Notes: generated from the letters alone by a model not told the origin. Counted from the first letter of the stretch, positions 1-54,186 are shown. The stretch: DNA of 64,000 bases from an uncultured Candidatus Binatia bacterium (GCA_965221155.1 OZ244869.1:4895321-4959320), one strand, 5' to 3'. Made by a program: numbers and translations.

Positions 1-1041
1 CATCCGATCGAACATCAGTACGGAGAAGACCACGACGACTCCCGGAAGAAAGCCGAAGAAGAGGACGGCGGCCCAGGGCTCCACGAAGACACAGGCGCCG
101 GTGATTGACACAAGGCCGGCGAGGGCGCCGTTGAGAGCCATGGTGACATCGGGTTTGCCGAACAGCAACCACGCCGACACGGTGGCGGCGATGGCGGCCG
201 CGGCAGCCGCAAGGCTCGTGTTGGCGGCGATAAGCGATATGTCGGCTACCCCGGCGCCCATGATGCTTCCGGTGTTGAAGCCGAACCAGCCGAACCATAG
301 AATGAACACCCCGAGCGTAGCGAGCATCAAGTTGTGACCCGGGAGGGCCAAGGGCATCCCCGTATCGCTGTATTTTCCGAGCCTGGGCCCCAGCACAATC
401 ACGCCCGCCAGGGCGAACCACGCACCGGTGGAGTGCACGACCGTGGAACCGGCGAAATCCAGCATGCCCAGTTCCGCAAGCCATCCACCGCCCCAGATCC
501 AGTGCCCCACGATGGGATAGAAGATCAGCGAGATGAAGAAACTGAATATCAGATAGCTCAAGAATCGGGTGCGCTCCGCCATGGCGCCGGCAACGATGGT
601 GGCGGCGGTGGCACAAAACATCAGGTGAAAGAACCACGCGGTCAAGGTCGGAACCGATGTCCAGCCCAGAGACTGATACAGGTTACCCGTGTCCGGCGAA
701 ACGAAGAAGCCCGTGGTTCCCAGGAAAGCGTTGCCATTGCCGAACATGATGCCGAAACCCAGTATCCAGAAGCCCAGGGAGGCCATGGAGAAGTCTCCGA
801 CGTTCTTCATCATGATGTTGACCGCATTCTTGGCGCGGGTAAACCCGCCCTCAACCATGGCAAAGCCCGCCTGCATGAGGAACACCAGTATACCCGCGAT
901 GCAGGTCCACAAGGTGTCCAGCGTTACCTGCAACTCCGGCACCGGCTTCCCGTCGATCCTGCCATCCAGCGCATACGCGATGGCGGGCAAAAGCATCAAT
1001 GCGAGCCCCATGGCAGTGAAAATAGGTAGTCGTCTCAGCAT
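1..1041 (-). CDS. amtB: ammonium transporter (Amt/MEP family), C-terminal part beyond window edge
   Basis: Minus-strand frame open from an ATG at ~1039-1041 (AGGAGG SD 8 nt upstream) to base 1. Translation MLRRLPIFTAMGLALMLLPAIAYA (signal peptide) ... FLMQAGFAMVEGGFTRAKNAVNIMMKN ... GMLDFAGSTVVHSTGAWFALAGVIVLGPRLGKY matches the Amt family. Absent from the ORF track only because it runs off the edge. ORFs 334..1029(+) and 689..1087(+) are its antisense shadow. Confidence 0.85.
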   Translation of the reverse strand, partial: MLRRLPIFTAMGLALMLLPAIAYALDGRIDGKPVPELQVTLDTLWTCIAGILVFLMQAGFAMVEGGFTRAKNAVNIMMKNVGDFSMASLGFWILGFGIMFGNGNAFLGTTGFFVSPDTGNLYQSLGWTSVPTLTAWFFHLMFCATAATIVAGAMAERTRFLSYLIFSFFISLIFYPIVGHWIWGGGWLAELGMLDFAGSTVVHSTGAWFALAGVIVLGPRLGKYSDTGMPLALPGHNLMLATLGVFILWFGWFGFNTGSIMGAGVADISLIAANTSLAAAAAAIAATVSAWLLFGKPDVTMALNGALAGLVSITGACVFVEPWAAVLFFGFLPGVVVVFSVLMFDRM

Positions 1042-1143
1042 GGATTCATCCTCCTGTCCCACCCACTCCTGCGCCGAGAACCCGTAAAGATTCGCCGGAT
1101 ACAGGTCCTGGAAGCCGCTTCCATCGGCCGTCCCTCCGCGTCG

Positions 1144-2129: not shown

Positions 2130-4496
2130 ATGGAAGGCAAGGAGATGGAAGACAGAGAACAACGAGCACCTGAACGAGCCTCCGCTCCGGTTACGGAAGA
2201 TGCGAACAGCGGAGGCGCGGAGAAGAGCGCCGGTCCCGACCCCGAAACTCCCGGCCGGTCTGACCGGCCTTGGGCGCCCGCTGCTGAATCGCCTCGGCCC
2301 ATGAGCGGGGCGCCAGGACCCGGGGATGCCCCGGACGAGAGAGTCGTCGATTCTCCCTGGTGGGAGGGCGGTTCGATGCCTGAAGAGGCGCCCGCTACGT
2401 ACAGGGGGGCGGGGTACATCTACAGGGGAGTGCGGTACGGCGAGCCCGTTCCCGAGCCCAAGTCTCAGCCGCCCCAAGAGCCGGACGACGACGATGACCC
2501 GGTGGACCTGTCCGTGCTGGCCGTGATGTCAGAGGACCAGCCGGCGGTTCCTCCCGCCGAAGGAACCGAGGCGAGAGAACCCTTCGTCGATTCTCCCTGG
2601 TGGGAGGTCGGTTCGAGGCCCGAGGAGACGGCCGACGACGATGACCCGGTGGACACGCCCGTGCTGGCCGTGATGTCAGAGGACCAGCCGGCCGTTCCCC
2701 CCGCCAAAGGAACGGAGGCGAGAGAACCCATCGTCGATTCTCCCTGGTGGGGGGGCGGTTCGCGGTCCGAGGAGACCGCCGAGGAGGAGCCCGATGCCGG
2801 CGGCGGGGAGGTAGCCCCGGGCGCGCCCTATCCGTACAGCGAGCCGGTATACGGCGAGTCCGTTCCCGAGCCCAAGTCCCAGCCGCCCGAAGAGCCGGAC
2901 GACGACGATGACCCGGTGGACCTGTCCGTACCGGCCGTGATGTCAGAGGACCAACCGGCCGTCGCTCCCGCCGAAGGGGGGAAAGCAGCAGAACCCGTCG
3001 TCAGTCCTCCCTGGTGGGGGGGCGGTTCGAGGTCCGAGGAGACGGCCGAGGAGGAGCCCGATGCCGGCGGCGGGGAGGTAGCCGCGGGCGCGCCCTATCT
3101 GTACAGGGGGACGGTATACGGCGAGTCCGTTCCCGAGCCCAAGCCCCAGCCGCCCGAAGAGGTGAACGACGACGATCAGCCGGTAGACATGTCTGTGCCG
3201 GCCGCGCTGTCAGAGGACCAACCGGCCGTCCCTCCCGCCGAAACGGGGGAGGAACACGCCGTGGAAGAGCCCCCGGCCGATCGCGGGGAGCCGGACCGGC
3301 AGCCTCCTGCTTCGCCGGGCGGCTTGTCCGCGGCGACGGAAGCGCTTCCCGAAGGTCCGCCCGGCGAGCTGATTCGCTCGATAGTCGCCGAGGTCTGTCC
3401 CGGCGAACTGCTGCTGGTCGGTACGGACAAAGCCCCATTACCGGAGTGGGCTCGCGCGGCCGTGACCGCGGCCCGCAACGATCTGGACCGGCGCCTGGCC
3501 GAGCGCAAGCCGGTCGATGCCAGAGAGTATCTTCGGCTGGCCATCGTTGAGAACGTCATGGGCCTTCACGAGGAAGCCGACGGTCACCTCAAGGAGGCGC
3601 TGCCGCGGAGCGACCGGTTCGGGCCGGTCCTGAACGCGCTGGCCGTTACGAGCCTGGCGCGGGGAAAAATCGCCCCCGCCATCGTCTACTGCAAGGAGGC
3701 ACTCCGCGAGACCGGCGGAGACGATTCCGTCCGCGCGGCCGCTTCATCCAACCTGGGAGATCTTTACCGTCTTGAAGGAAATACAGACCAGGCGGCTGAG
3801 GCGTACGAGACAGCCATCAAGTGCCTGGGACCGCAGGGGGAGTCTCGCTGGCTCCCGCGGTTGCATTTGCGCGTCGGCCGCCTCTACCGGCGCTTGGGCC
3901 AGACGGACAATGCGCGCCGGCACCTTTCCGATTCGGTCCGGCTGTTCAAGGAGACCGGCGACGAGGCCGGGTACGTCCGGTCCCTCGTAGCGCTTGGCTC
4001 GGCCTTGACCGAGTCGGGCTTGCACGACCTCGCTCTCAGGAATGTCGAAGAGGCGGTCCGGATTTGCCTGAGGACCGGGGACAAGCCCGGCGCCGCGCTG
4101 GTGCAGGACGAGCTGGGGGTGACCTACATGGCCCAGGACCAGTTGACGCGCGCTCTCGCGTATTTCGAAAGCGCCCTTTCGCTTCACCGTGAGTTGGGCA
4201 ACCGCACGGGCGAGGCGGCCACCCTGAGCAACATGGGGAAGATCTACGACTCCCGGGGTGACATCGGCGAGGCGCGGCAGTTCTACGAGGCAGCCCAGGA
4301 GATCAACCGCGAGCAAGGCCACGAGGTCGGCCAGGCCGCGAAGCCGCCGCAACTCGGGGCCGGCGATGAGGAAGGCGCACGGGCCAAGCTTCTGAAGGCG
4401 GAGGAAATCTTCAGCCGCGCCGGTTCGGCGGAACAGCAGGAGGACGCGCGGCAGATGACGGAAAAGCACGGGCCGGGGACCGAGGGTCTTCGGTGA
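2130..4496 (+). CDS. cytoplasmic TPR-repeat protein with N-terminal acidic tandem repeats
   Basis: 788 aa. N-terminal half has ~4 degenerate repeats (DSPWW-GGS ... PEPKSQPPEEPDDDDDPVDLSV-AVMSEDQPAVPPAEG). C-terminal ~350 aa are TPR-like (LGDLYRLEGNTDQAAEAYETAIKCLG; YFESALSLHRELGNRTGEAATLSNMGKIY). No signal peptide. Confidence 0.7.
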   Translation: MEGKEMEDREQRAPERASAPVTEDANSGGAEKSAGPDPETPGRSDRPWAPAAESPRPMSGAPGPGDAPDERVVDSPWWEGGSMPEEAPATYRGAGYIYRGVRYGEPVPEPKSQPPQEPDDDDDPVDLSVLAVMSEDQPAVPPAEGTEAREPFVDSPWWEVGSRPEETADDDDPVDTPVLAVMSEDQPAVPPAKGTEAREPIVDSPWWGGGSRSEETAEEEPDAGGGEVAPGAPYPYSEPVYGESVPEPKSQPPEEPDDDDDPVDLSVPAVMSEDQPAVAPAEGGKAAEPVVSPPWWGGGSRSEETAEEEPDAGGGEVAAGAPYLYRGTVYGESVPEPKPQPPEEVNDDDQPVDMSVPAALSEDQPAVPPAETGEEHAVEEPPADRGEPDRQPPASPGGLSAATEALPEGPPGELIRSIVAEVCPGELLLVGTDKAPLPEWARAAVTAARNDLDRRLAERKPVDAREYLRLAIVENVMGLHEEADGHLKEALPRSDRFGPVLNALAVTSLARGKIAPAIVYCKEALRETGGDDSVRAAASSNLGDLYRLEGNTDQAAEAYETAIKCLGPQGESRWLPRLHLRVGRLYRRLGQTDNARRHLSDSVRLFKETGDEAGYVRSLVALGSALTESGLHDLALRNVEEAVRICLRTGDKPGAALVQDELGVTYMAQDQLTRALAYFESALSLHRELGNRTGEAATLSNMGKIYDSRGDIGEARQFYEAAQEINREQGHEVGQAAKPPQLGAGDEEGARAKLLKAEEIFSRAGSAEQQEDARQMTEKHGPGTEGLR
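2341..3250 (+). repeat. intragenic tandem repeats (~150-260 bp units, 4 copies) encoding the acidic DSPWW repeats
   Basis: Near-identical stretches gattctccctggtggga...gaccagccggc recur at ~2341, ~2581, ~2728 and ~2992 with indels between copies. Confidence 0.7.
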
Positions 4497-4529: not shown

Positions 4530-6008
4530 ATGACTCATTCTCTTGGTGTTCGTTTCGGGTTGGCCGTGTTCTTTCTTGTGTGGGTTCCACTGCTGGCTGC
4601 GACGGGGTGGGGGGGCTACTGGTTGTGGCTGCGAATGGAGAGCCGCCCGTCCGCCGCCCTTCAGTCGCTTGCATTGCGCGGCGACGCATTGAAGCTCACC
4701 GAAGCCGCTTCGGGTCTGGCGGAGACGATCGACAGGTTCCTGCTCGATCGCATCGTCGAGGTGCAGACCTGGGCAACGTCCCCGGTGGTGGTAGCGGCGG
4801 TGCACAAGGCGCGAGCCGTGCACGCAAAAGACGGGTTGGACAACCTCGCGATTCAGCAGATCGAGGGCAAGTTCCGGACCAGAAAGAGCTTGAGAGTCGC
4901 GCCCGCGGCGCGCGCATACTTGAGCGAACAGGTCAGGATGTCCCCTCATTTTGCCGAGGTCTTCTTCACGGACGAGTTGGGCTTCAATGTGGCGCTGACG
5001 AACCCGACCTCGGATTTCGTCCAGTCCGACGAGGGCTGGTGGCAAAGGGCATGGTCGGCCGGATTTTCCGTAGGTGAAATCGAGTTCGATGCCTCGGCCA
5101 ATGTGTGGGCGGTGGACCTCTCGGTGCGCATTCAGGACAAGGGGACCGGCAACTCCATCGGCGTGATGAAGGCGATTCTGTCGGTACGCTTCGCCCAGTT
5201 GTTCGCCGACCGTCTCGCGCGCCGTCTTTCCGCGCCCGGCCAGCTATTGCATGCTCAGCTATTCGGTTCGACGCTCGATGGCGCCGCGCCGCGCGACTCG
5301 GAGACGGCGCGGACGCAGTTCCTGGTCGTGACCCGCGATGGGTCGTTGATCGCGGAGACGCGCTCTGGGCACGCTCGCGGGCGGATCATGCAGCCGGAGA
5401 TCAACCTGCTCACGGATGAGTCACTCACGCACTTGAACCTTTCCTATGAGGGCGACCGTTCCGGATCTTTCATCGCCACCCGGAAGGATACTCAGAATCG
5501 CCAGGACGGCAGGCTCGCGCCGAGTTATCTGGTCGCTTTCGCGCGTTCGGCGAGTACGGGCTTTTACGCGCCGGCCACGGAAAACTTCTCCGGTTTCGAC
5601 TGGATGATCATCGTGGAGGCGCCGAATCTGAGTAGTCACGCCGTTTTGCCGGAACTCGCCGGGACACGGTGGCAGGATCAACGGGATTGGGTACGCGATG
5701 TCCTGTGGCTCGGCGCCGCGCTGTGCGGGTCGCTGCTGTTCACTTCGATCATACTGTGCTGGCTGTTCGGCAGGTGGGTGCTGACGCCCGTACGCGCGTT
5801 GACCAATCGCGTGCAACGAATGGAGCAGGGCCACATCACCGGCAGGATCACGAGTTCGGCGAAAGGCGAGTTCGCCGAACTCGCGGCGGCCCTCGATCGT
5901 ATCCGCAATATGATCACCAAGATGGCCGACCGGCTACACCAGACGGCGGCGAGGCAGACGCAACCGAGAATGCCTGATGGTGATCCGCCTCGCCGGACCG
6001 GACCCTAG
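4530..6008 (+). CDS. membrane sensor with periplasmic Cache-like region and HAMP domain but no output domain
   Basis: TM1 FGLAVFFLVWVPLLAATGWGGYWLWL, ~300-aa periplasmic region, TM2 VLWLGAALCGSLLFTSIILCWLFG, HAMP (VLTPVRALTNRVQRMEQGHITGRITSSAKGEFAELAAALDRIRN), then a ~25-aa low-complexity tail. The stop codon TAG is the first 3 nt of the adjacent MITE. Confidence 0.65.
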   Translation: MTHSLGVRFGLAVFFLVWVPLLAATGWGGYWLWLRMESRPSAALQSLALRGDALKLTEAASGLAETIDRFLLDRIVEVQTWATSPVVVAAVHKARAVHAKDGLDNLAIQQIEGKFRTRKSLRVAPAARAYLSEQVRMSPHFAEVFFTDELGFNVALTNPTSDFVQSDEGWWQRAWSAGFSVGEIEFDASANVWAVDLSVRIQDKGTGNSIGVMKAILSVRFAQLFADRLARRLSAPGQLLHAQLFGSTLDGAAPRDSETARTQFLVVTRDGSLIAETRSGHARGRIMQPEINLLTDESLTHLNLSYEGDRSGSFIATRKDTQNRQDGRLAPSYLVAFARSASTGFYAPATENFSGFDWMIIVEAPNLSSHAVLPELAGTRWQDQRDWVRDVLWLGAALCGSLLFTSIILCWLFGRWVLTPVRALTNRVQRMEQGHITGRITSSAKGEFAELAAALDRIRNMITKMADRLHQTAARQTQPRMPDGDPPRRTGP

Positions 6009-6190
6009 TGTCCTGCGTAATGGTTTACAAAGATGCGCAGGATTTCTTGTTGTCGGCAAGGCGCGATGACTTGTAGGGGCGGGTTTCAAACCCGCCCGTG
6101 TGGCGGGCACCACGCGAGGAAGAGCAACGCAGCCGACGGCAAGAAAGACCAGCAGATTTGTAAACCATTACTTGGGACACCACACTAACC
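6006..6190. mobile_element. MITE copy 1 (~185 bp, imperfect palindrome, TA-flanked inverted termini; centre carries a REP)
   Basis: TA|GTGTCCTGCGTAATGGTTTACAAA ... TTTGTAAACCATTACTTGGGACACCACAC|TA. Centre contains GGGCGGGTTTCAAACCCGCCC. Same architecture at 33670-33857 and 53974-54186. Confidence 0.7.
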
Positions 6191-6225: not shown

Positions 6226-7941
6226 ATGGTGCCGGAAATCAAGTGGTTCTCCTGGATAGCACGCCGAATGGCGGTGACAGCCGGGCTCACCTTGTCTCTC
6301 GGCGCCTGTGGCGGGTTGCTGGTGGAGGAACGACGCACGGGCCAACTCGGGACGGCGGAGCGGCAGCAGTTGAACAACAGTCTGAATGTAGCGTCGGCGT
6401 CGGCCGATGCCGGCCAGCTCGAGGCCGCGGAGCGGCTGTATACGCAACTCTCCCGTCATTTCCCGAGCGCACCGGAGCCCAAGCTCGGGCTCGCTTACCT
6501 GGCGTTGGAGGCGGGTGACTTCACCCTCGCCGGCAAGCTTTTTGCCGAAGCGGACGAGAGATCAGCAACGCCGGCCGCCAAGGCCGAGGCGCTGCTCGGC
6601 GCGGGCCGGTCGAGCCTTGCAAGGGGCGACAGTGCCGGGGCGAAGACCCATTTTCTCACCGCTTCCAAGCTGGCCAAGGGAACGCCGGCTGAAGCCTGGG
6701 TGGCCAACGGCCTTGGCGTGGTGGCAACTCTCGAGGGCGACCATGCGGGGGCGCGGACGCGTTACGAAGAGGCCCTCACGTTGTCGCCGTCGCATCCGAT
6801 GATCACCGCGAATCTGGTGCGCGCGCTTGCCCAATCGGGCGCGGGAAACGAGGCGAGGCAGCTCTACGCCAAGTACCCCGCTTCCCATTGGTTGGAAGAC
6901 GACGGGGCCGACCTTTCGCGTTTGCTCAAAACCGGGAAAGGAGCCGCTACGGCTTCGGGCGCCCAGGTGCAGCTTTACTCCGCGCGCTCGCGCGACCGGG
7001 CGCTGGACGCCTGGGGCCGGCTCTCCTCGGAGGAAAAGGAGCTGCTTGGCTCTCTGACTCACCGCGTGGTGAAGGCCCAGATTCCGAAGAGAGGTGTGTT
7101 TTACCGCCTCTGGGCGGGTCCCCTGGCGGACAAGGCGGCGGCCAGGCGTCTGTGTGGCCTGCTGAAAGGCCGTGGCCGGGACTGCTTCGTCCTCGCAGGG
7201 AAATGGACCGAGAGCGACGGGGCAGGCGGGGCGGAGGAGAGCCCTGATGCCCAGCCCGGTGGCGCCCCCGAGACCGCGCGCTCCCGGCCGCCCGCGGTCA
7301 CGGCAGAGCCGGCTCGCGAGACGGCTCAAGCCGATACAGCCGCTACGGCTTCGGGCGCCCAGGTGCAGCTTTACTCGGCGCGCTCGCGCGACCGGGCGCT
7401 GGCCGCCTGGGGCCGGCTCTTCCTGGAGGAAAAGGAGCTGCTTGCCTCTCTGACTCACCGCGTGGTGAAGGCCCGGATTCCGAAGAGAGGGGTGTTTTAC
7501 CGCCTCTGGGCGGGTCCCCTGGCGGACAAGGCAGCGGCCAGGCGCCTATGCGGCCTGCTGAAAGGCCGCGGCCGGGACTGCTTCGTCCCCGCAGGGAAAT
7601 GGACCGGGGGCGGCCAAGAGACCGCGGGCTCCCGGCCGCCCGCGGTCACGAACGAACCGTCTCGCGAGGCGCCGGCGGCCGAAGGAGCCGTAGCGGCCAA
7701 GGTGCAGCTTTACTCCGGGCGCTCGCACGACGGGGCGCTGGCCGCCTGGGGCCGGCTCTCCTCGGAGGAAAAGGAGCTGCTCGGCTCTCTGACTCACCGC
7801 GTGGTGAAGGCCGAACTTCCGAAAAGGGGGGTGTTTTACCGCCTCTGGGCGGGTCCCCTGGCGGACAAGGCGGCGGCCTGGCGCCTATGCGGCCTGCTGA
7901 AAGGCCGCGGCCGGGACTGCTTCGTCCCGGCAGGGAAATGA
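6226..7941 (+). CDS. TadD-like TPR lipoprotein fused to three C-terminal SPOR (peptidoglycan-binding) domains
   Basis: Track ORF 6100..7941 begins inside the MITE; the likely start is the ATG at 6226 (MVPEIKWFSWIARRMAVTAGLTLSLGAC, lipobox). ~250 aa of TPR follow, then three ~85-aa repeats (QVQLYSARSRDRALxAWGRL...GVFYRLWAGPLADKAAARRLCGLLKGRGRDCFV) typical of SPOR domains. It sits directly upstream of cpaA and cpaB on the same strand. Confidence 0.6.
   Translation: MVPEIKWFSWIARRMAVTAGLTLSLGACGGLLVEERRTGQLGTAERQQLNNSLNVASASADAGQLEAAERLYTQLSRHFPSAPEPKLGLAYLALEAGDFTLAGKLFAEADERSATPAAKAEALLGAGRSSLARGDSAGAKTHFLTASKLAKGTPAEAWVANGLGVVATLEGDHAGARTRYEEALTLSPSHPMITANLVRALAQSGAGNEARQLYAKYPASHWLEDDGADLSRLLKTGKGAATASGAQVQLYSARSRDRALDAWGRLSSEEKELLGSLTHRVVKAQIPKRGVFYRLWAGPLADKAAARRLCGLLKGRGRDCFVLAGKWTESDGAGGAEESPDAQPGGAPETARSRPPAVTAEPARETAQADTAATASGAQVQLYSARSRDRALAAWGRLFLEEKELLASLTHRVVKARIPKRGVFYRLWAGPLADKAAARRLCGLLKGRGRDCFVPAGKWTGGGQETAGSRPPAVTNEPSREAPAAEGAVAAKVQLYSGRSHDGALAAWGRLSSEEKELLGSLTHRVVKAELPKRGVFYRLWAGPLADKAAAWRLCGLLKGRGRDCFVPAGK
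6943..7941 (+). repeat. three near-identical ~360-390 bp tandem DNA repeats encoding the SPOR domains
   Basis: gccgctacggcttcgggcgcccaggtgcagctttactc recurs at 6943 and 7333; a third diverged copy starts near 7690. Nucleotide identity >90 %. Confidence 0.75.
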
Positions 7942-7975
7942 TCGGCGCCGGCGGAGCCATGCGGGGAGGAGTCTC

Positions 7976-9382: not shown

Positions 9383-9436
9383 TTAGTGTCCTGTCCGGTT
9401 CAAACCCGCCGGCGTCCGCCTCGTTCGATACCGCGT
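9383..9436. repeat. remnant: MITE-type terminus TAGTGTCCTG fused to a half-REP (GGTTCAAACCCGCC)
   Basis: Sequence ttagtgtcctgtccggttcaaacccgccggcg. The same TAGTGTCCTGT(C/G)CCGG-REP junction occurs at 33855-33912. Confidence 0.4.
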
Positions 9437-12746: not shown

Positions 12747-12820
12747 CGCGTCTCTCTCCTTTCCGAGTGGACAACGTCCATCCCGAGACCTGGTATCGGC
12801 CGGTGGCGCGGTGCGAGCAC

Positions 12821-13390
12821 GGGCGGGTTTGAAACCCGCCCCTACATCGGATGTCCGGTTCCTACGCCCAGGAGGACGAGGCGTAGCGGGCGGGTCTGAA
12901 ACCCGCCCCTACATCGGATGTCCGGTTCCTGCGCCGCAGGAGGACGTGCCGTAGCGGGCGGGTTTGAAACCCGCCCCTACATCGGATGTCCGGTTCCTGC
13001 GCCGCAGGAGGACGTGCCGTAGCGGGCGGGTTTCAAATCCGCCCCTACATCGGATGTCCGGTTCCTACGCCCAGGAGGACGAGGCGTAGCGGGCGGGTCT
13101 GAAACCCGCCCCTACATCGGATGTCCGGTTCCTGCGCCGCAGGAAGGACGTGCCGTAGCCGGGCGGGTTTGAAACCCGCCCCTACATCGGATGTCCGGTT
13201 CCTGCGCCCAGGAGGACGTGGCGTAGCGGGCGGGTTTCAAACCCGCCCCTACATCGCATGTCCGGTTCCTGCGCCGCAGGAGGACGTGGGCGTAGGGGAC
13301 GGGTTTCAAACCCGCCCCTACATCGCATGTCCGGTTCCTGCGCCGCAGGAGGACGTGGGCGTAGGGGCGGGTTTCAAACCCGCCCGTGCC
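12821..13390. repeat. REP array A: 9 tandem ~69-70 bp units inside the tad gene cluster
   Basis: Unit is GGGCGGGTTT[G/C]AAACCCGCCC + CTACATCGGATGTCCGGTTCCTGCGCCGCAGGAGGACGTGCCGTAGC. The segments between palindromes are near-identical, so these are not CRISPR spacers. Confidence 0.9.
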
Positions 13391-13419
13391 CGCGCCGCGC
13401 TGCAGCGCGATACCAACTC

Positions 13420-14943: not shown

Positions 14944-14997
14944 TGCGCCGCAGGAACCGGACATCCGATGTAGGGGCGGGTTTCAAACCCGCCCGTG
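14944..14997. repeat. single REP unit
   Basis: gcgccgcaggaaccggacatccgatgtaGGGGCGGGTTTCAAACCCGCCCgtg. Confidence 0.85.
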
Positions 14998-28874: not shown

Positions 28875-29290
28875 TTCACGAACGCGGACGGGTTTGAAAC
28901 CCGCCCCTACATCCGCCTCTCCGGACCTGGCGAGGAATGGTCGGACATTGGTCCCCGTCCTGTCCGGCCGGGACGCGCCAAGGCGGACGGCGGGGGGTGT
29001 TTTCGCCCGGTGGGCGCGTGGGAACGCGATGCCTGGCGACTTCGCCTTGCATGAACGTGGTGCATGTAGGGGCGGGTTTCAAACCCGCCCGTACATCCCC
29101 CTCTCCGGACCTGGCGGAATGGTCGGACGTTGGTCCCTGTCCTGTCCGGGCTGGGGACGCGTCAACGCGGACCGCCGGTGGTGTTTTCGCCCGTTGGGCG
29201 CGTGGGAACGCGATGTCTGGCGACTTCGGCATGCACGAACGTGGTGCATGTAGGGGCGGGTTTCAAACCCGCCCGTGTACAAGATTAGCG
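28875..29290. repeat. REP array B: 2 x ~190-bp composite units (3 REP cores), 5' flank of the RAYT gene
   Basis: REP cores near 28875, 29067 and 29254; the intervening 170-bp segments are >90 % identical. Confidence 0.85.
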
Positions 29291-29312
29291 GGTCCGGCCG
29301 ATATATTGGAAC

Positions 29313-29855
29313 ATGAACACGCACCGTGACACGAACCAACCTGCACGCCGCTCCATCCGGCTGCGTGGTTTCGACTATGCCCAACAGGGGGCCTATTTCG
29401 TGACCATCTGCACGCACCAACGCGCATGCCTGTTCGGTGAAATCGCGGACGATGAGATGCGATTCAACACAACCGGGAGCGTGGCACACGGCGTGTGGAT
29501 GGGACTACCCACGCACTATCCCCACGTTGAGCTGGATGCCTTCGTCGTGATGCCGAACCATGTCCACGGCATCGTCGTCCTGGGATCAGGCATCCAACCG
29601 ACGCCCGTGAAGCTAGAGTCCCTGTCGGAGATCATTCGGGGATTCAAGACCTTCTCGGCTCGCCAAATCAATCGGTCACGGTCCAGGCCGGGAAACCGTG
29701 TGTGGCAACGCAACTACTACGACCATGTCATCCGCGATGAAGTCGGCCTCGACCGAATCCGGCAATACATCGTGGACAACCCGGCCCGCTGGGCGGAAGA
29801 TCCGGAAAACCCGGCCCGTCGGTCTGACGGGCGCGGGCGGGACCAAGGCGGGTGA
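29313..29855 (+). CDS. REP-associated tyrosine transposase (RAYT; IS200/IS605-like Y1 HUH)
   Basis: HUH motif MPNHVHGIVVL; catalytic Tyr region RVWQRNYYDHVIRDEVG; N-terminal FDYAQQGAYFVTICT. Flanked by REPs in opposite orientation. Confidence 0.85.
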   Translation: MNTHRDTNQPARRSIRLRGFDYAQQGAYFVTICTHQRACLFGEIADDEMRFNTTGSVAHGVWMGLPTHYPHVELDAFVVMPNHVHGIVVLGSGIQPTPVKLESLSEIIRGFKTFSARQINRSRSRPGNRVWQRNYYDHVIRDEVGLDRIRQYIVDNPARWAEDPENPARRSDGRGRDQGG

Positions 29856-29884
29856 CCGGTCCTACACCAACGCGGCTGCCGGCC

Positions 29885-30810
29885 CGAGCGCGGGCGGGTT
29901 TCAAACCCGCCCCTACGTCCGCCTCTCCGGACTTGGCGGAATGGTCCGACGTTGGTCCCTGTCCGGGCCGGGGCCGGGGACGCGCCAATGCGGACCGCCG
30001 GGGGTGTTTTCGCCCGGCCTGCCGGCCAGCGCGCGGGCGGGTTTGAAACCCGCCCCTACAATCGCCTCTCCGGACCTGGCGGAATGGTCGGACGTTGGTC
30101 CCTGTCCGGGCCGGGACGGGGATGCGTCAATGCGGACCGCGGGTCGTGTTCTCGCCCGGCCTGCCGGCCAGCGCACGGGCGGGTTTGAAACCCGCCCCTA
30201 CGTCCGCCTCTCCGGACCTGGCGGAATGGTCGACGTTGGTCCCTGTCCGGGACGGGACGGGGATGCGTCAATGCGGACCGCGGGTCGTGTTCTCGCCCGG
30301 CCTGCCGGCCCGTGCGCGGGCGGGTTTGAAACCCGCCCCTACAATCGCCTCTCCGGACCTGGCGGAATGGTCGGACGTTGGTCCCTGTCCGGGCCGGGAC
30401 GGGGATGCGTCAATGCGGACCGCGGGGGGTGTTCTCGCCCGGCCTGCCGGCCAGCGCACGGGCGGGTTTGAAACCCGCCCCTACGTCCGCCTCTCCGGAC
30501 TTGGCGGAATGGTCGGACGTTGGTCCCTGTCCGGGCCGGGACGGGGATGCGTCAATGCGGACCGCTGGGGGTGTTTTCGCCCGGCCTGCCGGCCAGCGCA
30601 CGGGCGGGTTTGAAACCCGCCCCTACGTCCGCCTCTCCGGACTTGGCGGAATGGTCGGACGTTGCGCCCTGTCCGGGACGGGGCCGGGGACGCGTCAATG
30701 CGGACCGCGGGGGGTGTTTTCGCCCGGTGGGCGCGTGGGAACGCGATGCCTGGCGACTTCGCCTTGCATGAACGTGGTGCATGTAGGGGCGGGTTTCAAA
30801 CCCGCCCGCG
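29885..30810. repeat. REP array C: 6 x ~142-bp composite REP units plus one 190-bp unit, 3' flank of the RAYT gene
   Basis: REP cores at ~29891, 30035, 30178, 30317, 30460, 30602 and 30786. Unit is REP + CTACGTCCGCCTCTCCGGACCTGGCGGAATGGTCGGACGTTGGTCCCTGTCCGGGCCGGGACGGGGATGCGTCAATGCGGACCGCGG...CCGGCCAGCGCACG. Many track ORFs here are translations of the repeat. Confidence 0.9.
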
Positions 30811-30842
30811 CCTCGGTGTCACACGACTGGGACGGGGAGCGC

Positions 30843-32566: not shown

Positions 32567-33631
32567 TTAGTTGAGGCCGTAGAAACGGCGCGCGTTGTCT
32601 CCCAGCACCGCCGCCTTGTGCTCCTCCGAGAGCTCCGTGTGGTTGCGCGTCTCCTCGATCATCTTCCGGGCCGCCGGCAGGTCCACCTCGTGAGGATAGT
32701 CGGACGAGTAGGCGAACGGCTCGACGCCCACGCGACGGGCCAGATACGGCAGGCTGACGTCGTTTCCCTCGCAGCCGATAAGGATCTGGCCGCTGGCGAT
32801 GTACTCAGGCAGCGGACGGCACGAGAGACCTTCCAGCTCCGCGTCGCGTTCCATGCGGTCGGCGATGCAGGTGAGCCAGGCGCAGCCGCCCTCCAGAAAC
32901 GCCACCTTGAGGGTCGGGTAGCGGTCGAACCAGCCATGATAGATGAACGAAACCAAGCCGATCATGAGCGGGACCGGGTGGTGCAGCAGCCGGGAGCCCA
33001 ACCGGCTGCTGAACGAGTCCAGGCCCACGCCGCGGTTGGAGCCGCCGTGAATGCCCAGCACGCAGCCGAGCTCCGCGGCCTCCTCGTAGACGGGTGCGTA
33101 GAACTCGTGGCCCAGGTGGAGATCCAGACCAGTGGAGGGAAGCATGCCGCCCAGCAGGCCCAGCTCCTTCACGCACCGGCGTAGCTCCGCGGCCGCGGCC
33201 TTGGGGTCCTGCATGGGCAGCAGCGCGATCGGATGGAGCCGTTTGCTGATGCCCCGGTACCGCTCGGTGACATAGTCGTTGTAGCCGCGGCACACCTTGA
33301 CGGCGTAGCTGGGCTGCTGGATGAAGCCCAGGGACAATCCTTCGGTGGCGTAGAGAACCGAGTCCGTGATCTCCGCTTTCTTCACGAACTCGAAGATGTC
33401 CTCGCCCGAGCCCGGCCGGCCGTCACTGGCTCTCACCGGGTTGATGCGGTTCTCCGCGGTCATTTCCTCGGTCTCCGGGTAGTGCATACCGTCGATGGAG
33501 GGAAACACGCCCGCCCGGTTCCGGGGCGGATTCAACGCGTACTCCCTCGCTTCCGGGACCATGTACTCCGCCATCTCGGGTATGGACTCGATCAGATGGC
33601 CGTCGGCGTCGACAACGGATATCTCGCTCAT
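32567..33631 (-). CDS. amidohydrolase-2 family metal-dependent hydrolase
   Basis: Track ORF 32567..33757 runs into the MITE. True start MSEISVVDADGHLIES (ATG 33629-33631, GAGG SD). TIM-barrel hydrolase motifs. Confidence 0.65.
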   Translation of the reverse strand: MSEISVVDADGHLIESIPEMAEYMVPEAREYALNPPRNRAGVFPSIDGMHYPETEEMTAENRINPVRASDGRPGSGEDIFEFVKKAEITDSVLYATEGLSLGFIQQPSYAVKVCRGYNDYVTERYRGISKRLHPIALLPMQDPKAAAAELRRCVKELGLLGGMLPSTGLDLHLGHEFYAPVYEEAAELGCVLGIHGGSNRGVGLDSFSSRLGSRLLHHPVPLMIGLVSFIYHGWFDRYPTLKVAFLEGGCAWLTCIADRMERDAELEGLSCRPLPEYIASGQILIGCEGNDVSLPYLARRVGVEPFAYSSDYPHEVDLPAARKMIEETRNHTELSEEHKAAVLGDNARRFYGLN

Positions 33632-33669: not shown

Positions 33670-33857
33670 TAGTGTTGTGTCTCACAAATAGGTTTACAAA
33701 TCTGCTGGTCTTTTTCGCCGTCGGCTGCGTTGCTCTTCCTCGCGTGGTGCACGCCACAGGAGGGCGACCGCCGGTCGCCCCTACAGGTCATCGCGCCTTG
33801 CCGACGACGAAAAATCCTGCGCATCTTTGCAAACCTATTTGTGAGACACAACACTAG
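33670..33857. mobile_element. MITE copy 2 (~188 bp; termini TA|GTGTTGTGTCTCAC ... GTGAGACACAACAC|TA)
   Basis: Perfect 14-bp inverted termini flanked by TA. Conserved GGTTTACAAA arms. Centre is a different hairpin (GGGCGACCGCCGGTCGCCC). Confidence 0.75.
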
Positions 33858-33891
33858 TGTCCTGTGCCGGGCGGCAGCGCCGGGCGGGCGC

Positions 33892-35259: not shown

Positions 35260-35323
35260 CGATGTAGGGGCGGGTTTCAAACCCGCCCGTGCCCGCATCG
35301 CTCTACCGGCCGATGCAGGTTCC
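35260..35323. repeat. single REP unit
   Basis: gatgtaGGGGCGGGTTTCAAACCCGCCCgtgcccgcatcgctctaccggccgatgcaggttcc. Confidence 0.85.
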
Positions 35324-37063: not shown

Positions 37064-37154
37064 GTGCCCGAACACGACGACGGCGGCCGGAACGCTACGA
37101 CCGGGACGAAGCGCCGAATTCCGGGAATGCGGTGTTGCCATGCTCCGTGGCATT

Positions 37155-37241
37155 TCTTCATCATGATGTTGGCCACGTTCTTGGCTCGGGTGAACCCGCC
37201 CTCGACCATGGCAAAGCCCGCCTGCATGAGGAACACATGCT
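37155..37241 (+). other. ~85-bp fragment ~93 % identical to amtB codons ~50-80 (window 800-886), antisense orientation relative to amtB
   Basis: Aligned directly. Minus-frame peptide FLMQAGFAMVEGGFTRAKNVANIMMK against amtB FLMQAGFAMVEGGFTRAKNAVNIMMK. The mismatches are mostly synonymous. Confidence 0.65.
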
Positions 37242-41631: not shown

Positions 41632-42273
41632 AAACCCCTCCGCCATCCGCTGCCGTACCAAACGGGCGAACCTTTCGAGCAGCCGTTTCCTGGCCCTCGT
41701 GCGAGAATCTTCGGCCAGTCTGGCATCGGCCAACCGGCTCACGTCTTCCAGGTTCAGCGCTTTTTCGAGGAATCCGGAGGAACCGGGCACGACTGCGCCT
41801 CTCGCGGCGTCGTAAACCTCCCGGAGCCTCAGGACTTGCCGCGGCCACAACACTTCCTTCGACTGCCTGCGCCGAAGCGTCGCTTCCGCGTCGAATAGGG
41901 CTTCCACCTGCAAGACCTCATCGAACCGATTGACCGAGACGTTCCTGATTCCGTAGTTCCGTATGACTCCCGAAAGAATCGCGTCCGCGTCTTCCGGCCG
42001 TTCCGCCACCCGTGGCCTCGGCTGGGCCGACAACTCCCGCCTGAGTGCCAGCGCCAGGCCGTCCTCCAGGCCTACCACGCGGGTGCGATTGATGAAGGGC
42101 TCTACATAGACCGTGCCGACATCGTCCGGCAGCGCCGCGTTGGAGTCCACGAACCGATAGCCACACCCTCCCGCCAGAAGCACCACGGCCAACGAGACCC
42201 ACAGCAGCAAGGCGCATCCGCGGTTCAAGCTGATCCCTTCAGTGGCATCTTCCCTGTGGTTGATACAGGACAC
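41623..42273 (-). CDS. lptE: LPS-assembly lipoprotein LptE (start uncertain)
   Basis: Lipoprotein (LLAGGCGYRF) directly downstream of leuS, as in many proteobacteria. The GTG start overlapping the leuS stop is a guess. Confidence 0.5.
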   Translation of the reverse strand: MSCINHREDATEGISLNRGCALLLWVSLAVVLLAGGCGYRFVDSNAALPDDVGTVYVEPFINRTRVVGLEDGLALALRRELSAQPRPRVAERPEDADAILSGVIRNYGIRNVSVNRFDEVLQVEALFDAEATLRRRQSKEVLWPRQVLRLREVYDAARGAVVPGSSGFLEKALNLEDVSRLADARLAEDSRTRARKRLLERFARLVRQRMAEGFLR

Positions 42274-44759
42274 TACACCAGCACGATGTTGACCAGCCGG
42301 CCGGGGACCTGCACGACTCGCCGGACGGAGCGGCCGTCGATGAAAGACGCCACCCGCGGGTCGGCCAGCGCGGTCGTCTCGATGTGCTCCGCGCCGGCAT
42401 CCGCCGGAACGGAAACCTTTCCGCGCAGCTTGCCGTTGACCTGCACGACGATGAGCTGGCTGTCCTGAACCAGCGCCGCCTCGTCGTACTCCGGCCACCC
42501 CACGTCCGCCAAGGCTTCGGTGTGGCCCAGCCGCTCCCACAGCTCGCTGGCGACGTGCGGCACGAACGGCGCCAGAAGAACGATCTCGGTCTCCAGGGCG
42601 GCCTTCGCCAACGCCGCTCCGCCCTCCGCTTGGAGGTCGTCGCCGCTCACCGAGCTCACGGTGTTGTGGAGCTCCATGACGGCTGCGATGGCGGTGTTGA
42701 AATGAAACCGCTGTTCGATATCGTCCGTGACCTTCTTGATGGTCCAGTGGATCCGGCGGCGCAACTCCTTGAGTCCGTCCGTGGACGCGATGCGGCTGGA
42801 ATCCGCCGCCACGTCCGCCAACTGCTCACGGTGGCTCATGGCGAAACGCCACACGCGGTTCAGGAACCGGTGGGCTCCCTCGACCCCCTGGTCGCTCCAA
42901 TCCAGGTCCTTCTCCGGCGGGGCCGCGAACAGCGTGAACAGACGCGCCGTGTCCGCGCCGTAGCGATTGATGAGCTCGTCCGGGTCGACCACGTTCATCT
43001 TGGACTTGGACATCTTGGCCCCGTCCTTGATGACCATGCCCTGGGTCAAAAGATTCGTGAAGGGCTCCGCCACCGACAACCAGCCCATGTCCCGCAGAAC
43101 GCGGGTAAAGAAACGGGCATAAAGCAGGTGCAGCACCGCGTGCTCGACGCCGCCCACGTACTGGTCCACGGCCATCCAGTAGCCCGTCCGTTCCCGGTCC
43201 AGCGGTTGACCGTCCTCGTCGGGACAGGCGTAGCGCGCGAAGTACCACGATGATTCCACGAACGTGTCCATGGTATCGGTCTCCCGGCGGGCCGGGCCAC
43301 GGCACGTCGGACACGCGGTCTCGTAGAACTCCGGAAGATTGGCCAACGGCGATCCGCCGGCACCCGTGAACTCCACGTTGGTGGGGAGCCGTACCGGCAA
43401 CTCGTCCACGGGGACCGGGACCATGCCGCAGCCGTCGCAATAGACCACGGGGATGGGCGCCCCCCAGTATCGCTGACGGGAGATGCCCCAGTCCCGCAAC
43501 CGGTAGCGGACGGTTCCCTTGCCCCAGTCCCGTTCCTCGAGGAACGCGGCGACCGCGCCCCGGCCTTCCCCGCTGCCCAGGCCGCTGAAGCTGCCGCTGC
43601 CGGCCATCACGCCGTCATCCGTGTACGCCTCGGTCATATCCTCGGCAACCAGGGTGGCGCCGCGCGGGTGGATCACCGGACGCACCGGAAGGTCGTACTT
43701 CCTGGCGAACTCGAAGTCCCTCTGGTCATGGGCCGGAACCGCCATGACCGCGCCGGTGCCGTATTCCATGAGCACGAAATTGGCCAGATAGACGGGGATC
43801 TTCTCCTGGGTGAACGGGTTGAGACAAAACGCACCGGTGAAGATGCCCTCCTTCTCCACCTCAACGTCGCCGCGCCGCGAATGGCTGATCCGCTTCACCC
43901 GTTGGGCGAACTCCTCCACCGCGCGTTGTTGCGGCGTGCCTGCCGACAGCTCCAGGGCCAGGGGATGTTCGGCGGCCAGGGAAACGAAAGTCGCCCCGTA
44001 GATGGTGTCCTGGCGGGTGGTGAAGACCGTGAGGTCGCCTTCCCGGTCCACCAGCGGGAAGCGGATCTCGGCGCCGATGGATTTCCCGATCCAGTTGCGC
44101 TGCATGGTGAGCACCTTGTCCGGCCACCCCTGGAGTTCGTCGCATCCCGCCAGCAAATCCTCGGCGTAGGCCGTGATGCGGAAGAACCACTGGGGCAGCT
44201 CGCGCATGACCACCTCTCGCTCGCAGCGCCAACAGCAACCGTCCACCACCTGCTCGTTGGCCAGAACGGTCCGGCAACCGCTGCACCAGTTGACCGCCGA
44301 GTTCCTCTTGTACGCCAGGCCGCGCTTGAGCATCTCCAGGAAGAACACCTGCTCCCAGCGATAGTAGCTCGCATCGGACGTGGCCAACTCACGGGTCCAG
44401 TCGTAGCTGAAGCCCATCTTCTTGAGCTGCGCCCGCATGTAGTCGATGTTCTCCACGGTCCACCGGGCGGGATGGACCTTGTTGGCGATGGCGGCGTTTT
44501 CCGCGGGCAGGCCAAAGGCGTCCCAGCCCATGGGGTGAAGCACGTTGAATCCGCGCATGCGCTTGTAGCGCGCGATCACGTCTCCGATGGAGTAGTTCCG
44601 CACGTGGCCCATGTGTATCCGGCCCGACGGATAGGGAAACATCTCCAGCAGATAATACTTGGGCAGGTCCGGGGTCTCGTCCACCCGAAAGCTCTCGAGT
44701 CGCTCCCACTCCCCCTGCCATCTCTTCTCGATATTCCAGAACTCGTACTTCTCAATCAT
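42273..44759 (-). CDS. leuS: leucyl-tRNA synthetase
   Basis: HIGH motif (HMGHVRNY), KMSKS, CP1 editing domain; 828 aa. Confidence 0.95.
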
Positions 44760-52011: not shown

Positions 52012-52959
52012 TCAGACTCCCAACTCCGGCAGGAGCTTGTCCAAGTCCTCGGGCTTTTCCAGATTGAGGGTGCTCATCCGCCGATCGATCCGTCTCACGA
52101 GCCCGGACAAGACCCTCCCCGGACCCAACTCGATCACGCGCTCGCAGCCAAGCCCGGCCAGGACCTTCATGGACTCCTCCCACCGAACCGCCGCCACCAC
52201 CTGCTCGACCAGAAGCGGCTTGACGCGCTCCGGGTCGGAGTTCAAGGCCGCCTCCACGTTGGTGATGACGCCCGCCCGGAACGGCAGTACCTCGACGCTC
52301 GCCAGCACCGCCCGCAGCCCCTCCGCCGCCGGTTTCATCAGCGCGCAGTGGAACGGAGCGCTCACCGCCAACTCCACCACTTTCCTCGCGCCCCGGTCGC
52401 GGGCCAGTTGCACCGCTCGCCGGACCGCCTCGCGGGCGCCGGAAATGACCACCTGTCCGCCGCCGTTCAGGTTGGCTGGAGCCGCCACCTCACCCTGCCC
52501 GGCGATTTCGCAAACCTCACGCACCGCCGCCGCCTCGAGCCCGAGGATCGCGGCCATGCTCCCCTCTCCCTCGGGTACGGCCTGCTGCATCAGGCGGCCC
52601 CGCTCCCGGACCACCTTGACCGCGTCCGCCAACGCGAGGGCCCCCGCGGCGACCAGGGCGCTGTATTCGCCGAGGCTGTGTCCGGCGACCCACGCGGGCC
52701 CGTGGGTACCATGGCCTTGCAGCACCCGGAGCGCGGCTACCGATACCACCAATACCGCCGGCTGAGTGTTTTCCGTCCGGTTCAGATCGGCGTCCGGGCC
52801 GCCAAAGCAAAGCTCGCGGAGGTCCAGGCCCAACGCGTCCTCCGCTTCCTCGAAGACCGCGCGCGCTTCCGGGAACCGGTCACACAGGCCTCTTCCCATG
52901 CCCACGTGCTGTGAGCCCTGGCCCGGAAAAACGAACGCGGTGCCGTTTCGGTCCGTCAT
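52012..52959 (-). CDS. fabD: malonyl-CoA:ACP transacylase
   Basis: FVFPGQGSQHVGMG; GHSLGEYSALV. Confidence 0.9.
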   Translation of the reverse strand: MTDRNGTAFVFPGQGSQHVGMGRGLCDRFPEARAVFEEAEDALGLDLRELCFGGPDADLNRTENTQPAVLVVSVAALRVLQGHGTHGPAWVAGHSLGEYSALVAAGALALADAVKVVRERGRLMQQAVPEGEGSMAAILGLEAAAVREVCEIAGQGEVAAPANLNGGGQVVISGAREAVRRAVQLARDRGARKVVELAVSAPFHCALMKPAAEGLRAVLASVEVLPFRAGVITNVEAALNSDPERVKPLLVEQVVAAVRWEESMKVLAGLGCERVIELGPGRVLSGLVRRIDRRMSTLNLEKPEDLDKLLPELGV

Positions 52960-53951
52960 CAGTCTCGTTTGGCCAACGCACTCGCGATATACCCGTTGAT
53001 GTCCTGTGAAACGGCTTCAGCCGCTACCCGGACGGCATTCTTGATGGCCTCGGCCGAGGAACCTCCGTGGGCCACGATGGCGACGCCGTTCAAACCCATC
53101 AAGGGTGCTCCACCGTAATGCGCGTAGTCGAGGCGGTCATAGGCTTGTCTGATGGCGCCCCGGCAGAAAAGATAGCCCACCCGGCTCAATAGGCTGGCCC
53201 GGAATGCTCCCTTCAGGACCGAGGAAACGAACTGCCCGAGTCCTTCCATGGTCTTCAACGCCACGTTGCCCGTGAAACCGTCACAGACCACCACGTCCAC
53301 GCGGCCGTTGGTGATGTCCCGCCCTTCCACGTGACCCATGAAGTTCAACTCCGTGGAGCGCAACTCACGGACCGCCTCGCGCGTGAGGTCATTGCCCTTG
53401 CCGTCCTCTTCGCCGTTGCTCAGGACGCCCACGCGCGGGTTTGCGTGACCCAGGATCTTCTCCGCGTAGATGGCGCCCATGTGCGCGAACTGGACCAACT
53501 GCCGCGGCTTGCAGTCCGTGTTGGCGCCCCCGTCCAGGAGCACCGTCCCCCCGGACATCGAGGGGGTCACCGTCAGGATCGCCGGGCGGTCCACTCCCGG
53601 CAATCGGCCGAGCACGAACATGCCGATGGCCAGCATGGCTCCGGAATTCCCGGCGCTCACCAACGCGTCACCCTCACCGGCCTTCAACCGGTCAAAGGCC
53701 ACTCTCATGGAAGAAGCCTTCTGTTTCAGCGCGCGGCTCGGCGAGTCGTGCATGTCGATGGTGCAGGCAGCGGGGAGGACACGTACGGCTGACGGGTTGA
53801 ACTTGTGACGCGACAACTCGGACTCCACGGCGTCCGATTGGCTTATCAGGGTGACCTCCACGCCGTATTCTTCCGCGGCCCGGAGGGCACCCGCTACGAC
53901 AACGCCCGGGCCGTGGTCACCGCCCATCGCGTCAACGATAATCCGCCGCAT
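52959..53951 (-). CDS. plsX: phosphate acyltransferase PlsX
   Basis: Track ORF 52959..54086 runs into the MITE. True start MRRIIVDAMGGDHGPG (53949-53951). Confidence 0.85.
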   Translation of the reverse strand: MRRIIVDAMGGDHGPGVVVAGALRAAEEYGVEVTLISQSDAVESELSRHKFNPSAVRVLPAACTIDMHDSPSRALKQKASSMRVAFDRLKAGEGDALVSAGNSGAMLAIGMFVLGRLPGVDRPAILTVTPSMSGGTVLLDGGANTDCKPRQLVQFAHMGAIYAEKILGHANPRVGVLSNGEEDGKGNDLTREAVRELRSTELNFMGHVEGRDITNGRVDVVVCDGFTGNVALKTMEGLGQFVSSVLKGAFRASLLSRVGYLFCRGAIRQAYDRLDYAHYGGAPLMGLNGVAIVAHGGSSAEAIKNAVRVAAEAVSQDINGYIASALAKRD

Positions 53952-53973: not shown

Positions 53974-54186
53974 TTAGTGTCGTGTCCCACATAAGAGTTG
54001 ACAAATCTGCTGGTCTTTTTCGCCGTCGGCCGCGTTGCTCTTCCTCGCGTGGTAACGGCCACTGCTCGTCCTGAGCCCTTCGACAAGGCTCAGGACAGGC
54101 TTCGCGCAGCGAAGTCGAAGGACGCCTTGCCGACAACGAAAAAACCTGCGCATCTTTGTCAACTCTTATGTGGGACACGACACTAG
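53974..54186. mobile_element. MITE copy 3 (~213 bp) filling the entire rpmF-plsX intergenic region
   Basis: Termini TA|GTGTCGTGTCCCAC ... GTGGGACACGACAC|TA. Centre is a third distinct hairpin (cgtcctgagcc...ggctcaggacag). The terminal TAG serves as the rpmF stop codon. Confidence 0.75.

Follow-up and report, generated by a model that had tools for sequence, protein, structure and literature searches.

The window, by which we mean the whole 64,000-nt stretch of DNA that was analysed, holds exactly three full copies of one repeat, each a long palindrome with TA at its flanks. Copy 1 (6006..6187, 182 bp including both TA, sense strand +) lies between a HAMP-domain gene (4530..6008, + strand) and a TPR-SPOR gene (6226..7941, + strand). 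Copy 2 (33670..33856, 187 bp, sense strand -) is located upstream of an amidohydrolase (Amidohydro_2) gene (32567..33631, - strand) and copy 3 (53975..54185, 211 bp, sense strand -) separates rpmF (L32; 54183..54365, - strand) from plsX (52959..53951, - strand). The sense strand is defined by the presence of GCGAGGAAGAGCAACGCAGCC, which in copy 1 is the + strand; copy 1 thus lies in the opposite orientation to the other two. An earlier note on this DNA had described them as one element, and in this it was right: they have invariant 22-nt and 18-nt blocks in common, far beyond chance, and a mean column identity of 77% over approximately 190 nt. A profile HMM built solely from copies of other genomes matched precisely these three sites in the window (E = 3e-44 to 6e-40) and detected no further sizeable fragment there. 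Only the ends given previously had to be shifted, by 1-3 nt. The neighbouring genes named in the earlier note were likewise confirmed; an exact-protein look-up for rpmF returned no record.

The inverted termini (TAGTGT...ACACTA) with TA at both junctions were found as described, TA being present at 6/6 junctions, and the one exception in sequence is the 6006 end of copy 1. This end reads TAGTGTCCTGC vs TAGTGTGGTGTCCCAA at the opposite end and is 5 nt shorter. Copy 1 consists of a degenerate 5' outer terminus (6006-6016), paired arms (6017-6031 and 6157-6171) and an intact 3' terminus (6172-6187), and with one terminus degenerate it is probably immobile. The arms of copy 2 are 31 nt long, TAGTGTTGTGTCTCACAAATAGGTTTACAAA and its complement. 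In addition, three solo terminus remnants were identified in the window: TAGTGTCCTGTCCGGTT (9384..9400, + strand) which adjoins a REP fragment and lies directly 3' of a TGA stop, TAGTGTCCTGTGC (33855..33867, + strand) with its TA in common with the end of copy 2, and a third at 42261..42275 (- strand; GATACAGGACACTA on the + strand). At the position of the 33855-33867 remnant the related stretch L031 reads TGGTGT.

The copies are interlocked with the adjacent genes. The TAG stop of the HAMP-domain gene (6006-6008) is composed of the TA duplication and the first G of copy 1, and copy 3 was inserted at the TA within the stop codon of rpmF, which is now the terminal CTA of the element (TAG on the minus strand, at 54183). 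The donated stops of both genes had been noted earlier and are real. The copies had also been placed 22-35 bp before the start codons of the downstream genes; they do lie just upstream of each ATG, but the measured spacing is 38 nt for copy 1 (ATG 6226), 38 nt in the sense direction for copy 2 (ATG 33631) and 23 nt for copy 3 (ATG 53951). Furthermore, at 3/3 copies the downstream open reading frame gains an in-frame N-terminal extension, as the earlier note had pointed out.

We queried a genome collection with an exact 20-mer from the core of the element (at least 107 stretches matched) and metagenomes with a 19-mer from the other core half (at least 120 stretches matched). The genome matches listed belong to Candidatus Binatia MAGs or to MAGs labelled Deltaproteobacteria, Thermodesulfobacteriota or Syntrophobacterales; the sole "Actinomycetota" match (L051) was discarded as a chance 20-mer match that carries no copy. 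The 107 loci, from about 14 Binatia MAGs and the window, yielded at least 103 copies with termini complementary at 24-30 of 30 positions, and one chromosome, OZ253480.1, alone has at least 24 8-kb blocks with the element. No copy was found in viral contigs. Among the matches listed we distinguished 14 subfamilies. Neither a conserved open reading frame nor similarity to the partner transposases described below was detected in the element. A literature search on mobile elements in Binatia or Binatota found nothing relevant; the family is previously undescribed, of a well-known kind.

The basal element is 163 bp long including both TA (40/76 copies among the matches listed), and a 187-bp form accounts for another 18/76. 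The longer forms (187-222 bp) carry REP-type hairpins or another small repeat, all at one apical site, and REP insertions at the apex occur in about 40% of the copies among the matches listed. In copy 1 the REP hairpin TTGTAGGGGCGGGTTTCAAACCCGCCCGT (6071..6099, + strand) stands in for the basal GAGCA at the apex, copy 2 has a REP-like hairpin at 33758-33786 and copy 3 a 53-nt insert (54070-54122) from the other small repeat family. The centre does therefore differ between the copies, with a REP core in copy 1, as noted earlier; its hairpins are not a variable part of the element itself, since the 163-bp basal form lacks the central REP, which is therefore a secondary insert, and the insert of copy 3 is a different repeat. 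REP-type hairpins were inserted at the apex later, which produced the 187-222 bp forms. GTAG-hairpin REPs are abundant across the window.

Target site, empty alleles and partner transposases

The element sits in a strongly preferred context. The arrangement C-TA-[GTGT...ACAC]-TA-G was found in 65 of the 76 copies with both termini intact among the matches listed, and among the metagenome copies listed the flanking C is present in 28/30 and the G in 29/30. Copies elsewhere are thus flanked by TA as those of the window are, mostly within CTAG. The tetranucleotide is scarce in this genome of 65% GC, with a frequency of 0.45 per kb, and of its 16 occurrences in the window 4 are element junctions.

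Empty alleles were identified in relatives for 3/3 window copies. At the site of copy 1 the HAMP-domain gene ends CC-TAG in three relatives (L115, L116, L117), where the TPR-SPOR gene follows 46-85 nt after the HAMP stop with no element between. Copy 2 is missing from the orthologous site of L031 (OZ253480.1, DNA 93% identical). For copy 3, the earlier suggestion to compare rpmF-plsX spacers proved fruitful: relatives L108-L111 lack the element and have a spacer of 22-30 nt, which in L109 reads ACC TAG GCC. The reverse case was found as well, as L031 has a copy at 4965-5151 with no counterpart in the window near 35305. Likewise, L067 and L084 are each without a copy present in the other. In every filled/empty pair a single dinucleotide (TA, TG or CA) stands in place of TA-element-TA, hence the duplication is 2 bp, TA. 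In three empty alleles the dinucleotide is TG or CA, and for these we infer the state of the target when insertion occurred. Head-to-tail neighbours sharing one TA (ACACTAGTGT) are frequent (33855 in the window, 6349 in L102, 6517 in L106 and also in L224), which fits the recreation of CTAG at both new junctions by insertion.

Full-length IS630-type elements with matching terminal repeats, which the earlier note had proposed to look for, were found in three stretches. The first (L102, 5165-6350) lies on OZ253480.1, the closest relative of the window among the matches listed. It is flanked by TA, has 36-bp terminal repeats and encodes a transposase of 372 aa that matches NCBIfam NF033545 "IS630 family transposase" with 255 bits (cut-off 100) as well as DDE_3 and HTH domains; its outer 21 nt, TAGTGTGGTGTCTCACAAATA, equal the outer end of one MITE subfamily. 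The second (L106, 6517-7670) encodes an IS630-family transposase of 365 aa (6573-7670), 43% identical to that of L102, and its right terminal repeat TAGTGTCGCGTCCCGCAAATA matches a second subfamily over 21 nt. The stop codon of this transposase gene is itself the terminal TAG. The third (L224) has a transposase that shares 47% identity with the L106 enzyme, and its right terminal repeat TAGTGTGGTGTCTGGTTAATTCG matches the most abundant subfamily among the matches listed over 23 nt. The interior of the MITE is unrelated to the interiors of these partner elements.

IS630 and ISY100 insert into TA, which they duplicate, and IS630 prefers CTAG (PMC2170065). Small size, terminal inverted repeats, TA duplication, many copies and matching partners were all found in the present family, which is why we assign it to the IS630-type MITEs, in agreement with the IS630/Tc1-mariner-type origin first suggested from the TA flanks. 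With a probability of roughly 93%, the three repeats are MITE copies moved in trans by IS630-family DDE transposases. Against this model stand the lack of a transposase gene within the 64,000-nt window, the degenerate terminus of copy 1 and the three empty alleles with TG or CA, not TA. In such a cycle the transposase would bind the terminal repeats and excise the element, and the excised element would be pasted into a TA, preferably inside CTAG, with duplication of the TA.

The conserved interior and its strand asymmetry

Read on the sense strand from the ends inward, the element consists of two 31-nt terminal inverted repeats starting with GTGT, an 11 x 11 nt segment that is unpaired in part, an inner stem of 14-15 bp and an asymmetric core of approximately 50 nt ending in a GUGG-N6-CCAC hairpin. 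These parts evolve at very different rates. Among the matches listed, the 31-nt arms are about 26-27% off consensus among the 14 subfamilies yet fully complementary, with compensatory change at 28 pairs. In the genome set, core positions 58-79, which played no role in finding these copies, differ by 0.1%, against 18% in the hexaloop within the core. The metagenome set, ascertained reciprocally, gave 1.5% for the other core half, 10.6% for the loop and 26% for the arms. Gene conversion or a recent origin behind the conserved interior is disfavoured, because the hexaloop lying within it varies freely. Thus lineages of active elements keep the interior while arms and loop drift. For individual inserts no additional constraint on it is seen: with the arm-to-arm mismatch rate used as a proxy for change after insertion, the core change of 1.5% is close to the mismatch of 2.0% per site in the metagenome set, and there is no sign of selection on individual copies.

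The two strands are also unequal. Transition mismatches between the arms, read on the sense strand, are G.U rather than A.C in 29 vs 8 independent events in the genome set (p = 0.0008) and in 23 vs 6 in the metagenome set (p = 0.002), a bias that holds in copies both co-oriented and anti-oriented with host genes. The predicted hairpin has -97 kcal/mol (z = -15), and RNA of the sense strand is predicted to fold more stably than antisense RNA, by a mean of 10.7 kcal/mol and in 74/76 copies among the matches listed. In tandem gene contexts among the matches listed, the sense strand is co-oriented with the flanking genes in 51 vs 25 cases (p = 0.004, pooled), and the three window copies all have the majority orientation; gene contexts in these counts are heuristic gene calls.

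Under a plain model of selfish cut-and-paste one would expect neither a near-invariant interior nor a strand asymmetry of the mismatches, and the 2:1 co-orientation with flanking genes is left unexplained. Since ISY100 makes do with about 30 bp at each end (PMC2170065), transposition would not be expected to require the interior in cis. We weighed an alternative in which the interior would act as a functional single-strand module (RNA or ssDNA), carried on interchangeable IS630-type termini and under selection for its sense-strand fold; this is compatible with the MITE assignment, and we regard it as less likely than not. Low divergence of the interior in two reciprocal ascertainments (0.1-1.5% per site, hexaloop 10-18%, arms 26%), the match of three subfamilies with this interior to three transposases only 43-47% identical, the G.U excess in both sets, the fold asymmetry and the co-orientation all argue for it. 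On the other side, within copies the core changes about as much as the arms mismatch, the apex tolerates REP inserts in about 40% of copies, and the G.U bias is equal in co- and anti-oriented copies. Moreover, the whole window has no Rfam match at the gathering score, and copy 1 and a basal copy searched at permissive E-values gave chance-level hits only (E >= 0.03, far below gathering). The core was predicted by folding tools to contain three tandem G.A internal loops beneath the GUGG-N6-CCAC hairpin; compared with shuffles the stability of the core alone is not significant (z = -2.2), and the tandem G.A "zipper" is offered as a lead only.

Two more specific claims go with this alternative. 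It is possible, although we would not bet on it, that the interior is a device, at its simplest a structured RNA, that has long been carried by termini matched to different transposases. Similarly doubtful is the proposal that the sense-strand fold of this module, with core and inner stem as its features, is needed either for spread of the element or for an effect on host transcripts. Should the interior be functional, it would represent a structured nucleic-acid module spread by transposases, and the MITE would be the vehicle for an RNA or DNA device, beyond the bare pair of transposase sites. Irrespective of this, the family is an unusual MITE in that a single near-invariant interior is joined to several sets of termini with a different matching transposase for each; the excess of G.U on one strand and the 2:1 bias in orientation are likewise unusual.

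Gene boundaries, probable transcription and comparable repeats

Returning to the trans-mobilised MITE as the preferred reading, its positions next to genes probably follow from the CTAG/TA target preference. The rare CTAG would be tolerated mainly at C-TAG stops and in short spacers, so that copies would pile up at gene boundaries. Because the element starts with G after TA, a TAG stop split by insertion would be rebuilt. In keeping with the examples of the window, the stop codon of a gene is the terminal TAG in at least 57 cases (31 genome loci and 26 metagenome loci, by a simple GC3-based gene call). Start-codon proximity and donated stops are hence no evidence for a dedicated regulatory role.

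Two further readings of the repeats deny the IS630-type origin or the mobility itself, and both are very improbable. One takes them for elements of the REP/BIME type, akin to the GTAG-hairpin REPs of the window and dispersed by means of a RAYT (Y1) transposase. REP hairpins are indeed abundant there and one lies inside copy 1, but the 31-nt terminal inverted repeats, the 2-bp TA duplication and the IS630 partners with identical termini do not agree with such an origin, and the 163-bp basal form has no REP at all. The other takes the repeat for a fixed cis-regulatory leader or a small RNA gene, immobile upstream of particular genes. Its appeal comes from the window, where the copies lie 23-38 nt upstream of start codons in the same orientation to the gene. 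Nevertheless, the flanking genes are unrelated, the copies occur in all four gene contexts and in both orientations across loci, and the distances to start codons vary widely, with no fixed value and no frame preference. The in-frame pattern of 38, 38 and 23 nt in the window is therefore a coincidence that does not hold in general, and a fixed spacing or frame relation to start codons was rejected. Orthologous sites of relatives are without the element, and the presence/absence polymorphisms with TA duplication refute a fixed leader. Least probable of all is an assembly collapse or chimera: a short-read contig with the identical HAMP-domain gene does break 44 nt into the element, which shows that assemblers struggle with it, but the flanks of each copy are unique, sequence variants and inserts differ from copy to copy, empty alleles exist at all three sites, and the same family is present in many independent long-read chromosome assemblies.

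The earlier note had assigned the element to the 5' UTR or promoter of the downstream genes. The second possibility was dropped, as a scan for sigma-70-like promoters was empty on all three window copies; a terminator scan likewise found no intrinsic terminator inside them. The first is likely in the case of plsX, judging from the gene arrangement. The ancestral rpmF-plsX spacer of 22-30 nt implies co-transcription, so that copy 3 is very probably transcribed and the element before plsX likely has the status of 5' UTR or intercistronic RNA. More generally, a copy within or beside an operon such as rpmF-plsX would probably be co-transcribed and fold as a long RNA hairpin, which could influence mRNA processing or stability; transcription of the element and any effect on expression we infer.

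Several small palindromic repeats of other bacteria invite comparison, and RUP (repeat unit of pneumococcus) is the closest analogue with respect to spread, for which the same mode is proposed in the Binatia element. RUP is the classic MITE of the IS630 type, with IS630-Spn1 as its proposed source of mobilisation, and is small and non-coding like the Binatia element, with terminal repeats that match an IS630-family insertion sequence of the same genomes, insertion into TA and a frequent location beside or inside other mobile elements (PMC2229807). RUP differs in its length of 107 bp, in its host group, the Firmicutes, and in its unrelated sequence. To our knowledge, neither a conserved structured interior nor subfamilies with different termini on one interior have been reported for it. 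IS630 and ISY100, which resemble the Binatia element in their TA duplication and, for IS630, in the CTAG preference, are moved in cut-and-paste fashion by a DDE transposase that has helix-turn-helix domains at its N-terminus (PMC2170065). They are autonomous and about 1.1-1.2 kb long, in contrast to the Binatia MITE, which has no gene.

Correia and ERIC are the closest counterparts for possible effects of transcribed copies, and Correia offers the best model of how such copies might behave. Correia/NEMIS elements of Neisseria are TA-flanked palindromic MITEs of 100-160 bp near gene boundaries, and they are co-transcribed, with terminal repeats that fold into a long RNA hairpin cleavable by RNase III (PMC2229807). 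ERIC/IRU elements of enterobacteria are imperfect palindromes, about 127 bp long and bounded by TA on either side, which are transcribed together with adjacent genes and can change mRNA stability (PMC3184786). Correia elements have an IHF site and promoter-like sequences, whereas for the Binatia element partners were identified and no promoter was found in the window copies. ERIC copies are old and largely immobile, and their sequence is unrelated. We know of no transposase partner for Correia and of no transposase for ERIC. The RAYT-associated REP/BIME repeats resemble the Binatia element in being abundant extragenic palindromes of the same genome, and copies 1 and 2 have them nested at the apex. 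They constitute a separate family of 20-40 nt GTAG-hairpins that have neither terminal inverted repeats nor a target duplication.

The family has practical consequences for the annotation of Binatia MAGs, where it causes predictable errors: over-extended N-termini, stop codons owned by a transposon and breaks of short-read contigs, all of which a family profile would fix. It also provides a clear example of a rare tetranucleotide, CTAG in a genome of 65% GC, guiding a transposon into stop codons and short spacers, where the first base of the element repairs the stop codon that its insertion splits. In addition, hundreds of polymorphic insertions offer ready strain markers for an uncultured phylum. 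A coding role for the open frame that runs through the element was considered and rejected, as the arms alter the peptide freely and inserts are tolerated. Separately, we observed that part of this open frame mirrors the C-terminus of the transposase.

Target sites, stop codons and assembly breaks

Where the junction of the IS630-type miniature transposon (MITE) reads CTAG, its preferred target, in one genome, the orthologous position in a relative lacking the element is often CTGG or CCAG. Such empty sites read CCTGGTGT in L031 (a locus of OZ253480.1, a close relative of the window), TTCCAGCG in the locus L084 and CCGTGACT in the locus L067. Some copies of the element (L030, L049, L100 and L107) are themselves flanked by CTGG...CCAG instead of CTAG. 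Very-short-patch repair has a known bias from CTAG to CCAG/CTGG, and the sequences at empty sites and flanks would be consistent either with this bias or with a Dcm-type C-to-T change that makes targets.

Stop codons also coincide with termini of two full-length IS630-family elements whose ends match those of MITE subfamilies. The transposase ORF of the element at L106 6517-7670 stops at the terminal TAG of the right inverted repeat (7650-7670), and the element at L102 5165-6350, from OZ253480.1, has as its own insertion site the stop codon TAG (5165-5167) of the gene that precedes it. An open frame across the MITE arm (..GH.TN / ..CETPH) resembles the C-terminus of the transposase.

The MITE family is a cause of breaks in short-read assemblies. 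Many of its metagenome matches lie at contig ends, and the short-read contig L114 (Logan contig ERR13602196_30268), which encodes a HAMP protein identical to that of the window (4530-6008, + strand), stops 44 nt inside copy 1 (6006-6187).

Small palindromic repeats

The window contains more than 25 copies of a REP hairpin that is led by GTAG (GTAGGGGCGGGTTTCAAACCCGCCC); they lie in arrays at 12797-13409 and 28886-30831 and as single copies at 14965, 27635, 35259, 36904, 38147, 47019, 56478, 60330 and elsewhere. Nine units of ~68 nt form a tandem array and further arrays have periods of 142/184 nt, a pattern typical of RAYT-associated REP/BIME. A second palindromic family (GGCGTCCTTCGACTTCGCTTCGC...CTCAGGACGAACGG...) is common in Binatia loci (L007 277-409, L040 2958-3138, L046 506-636, L048 2898-3070, L057 609-742, L066 1082-1213, L098 5613-5821), and one piece of it is nested within MITE copy 3 at window 54070-54122. 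Related loci carry two more families, one with ...CGTCATTCCCGCGAAAGCGGGAATCC... and the other with ...CCCCTCTCCCTCTGGGAGAGGG... (L023 5291-5604, L040 4070-4419; L036 2631-2830, L048 6945-7132). The genomes of these loci seem unusually rich in small repeats.

Repeats in coding regions

Two coding regions far apart in the window share an 83-nt stretch with 93% identity (803-885 and 37154-37236) and are probably paralogous genes; window 392-1058 can be aligned with L031 1288-1948. Internal direct repeats of 147/267 nt were found at 2344-3242 in the ORF 2130-4496. Downstream of copy 1, in the region of the TPR-SPOR gene (6226-7941, + strand), three direct repeat units of ~340-390 nt at 6942-7951 code for the protein's three SPOR repeats.
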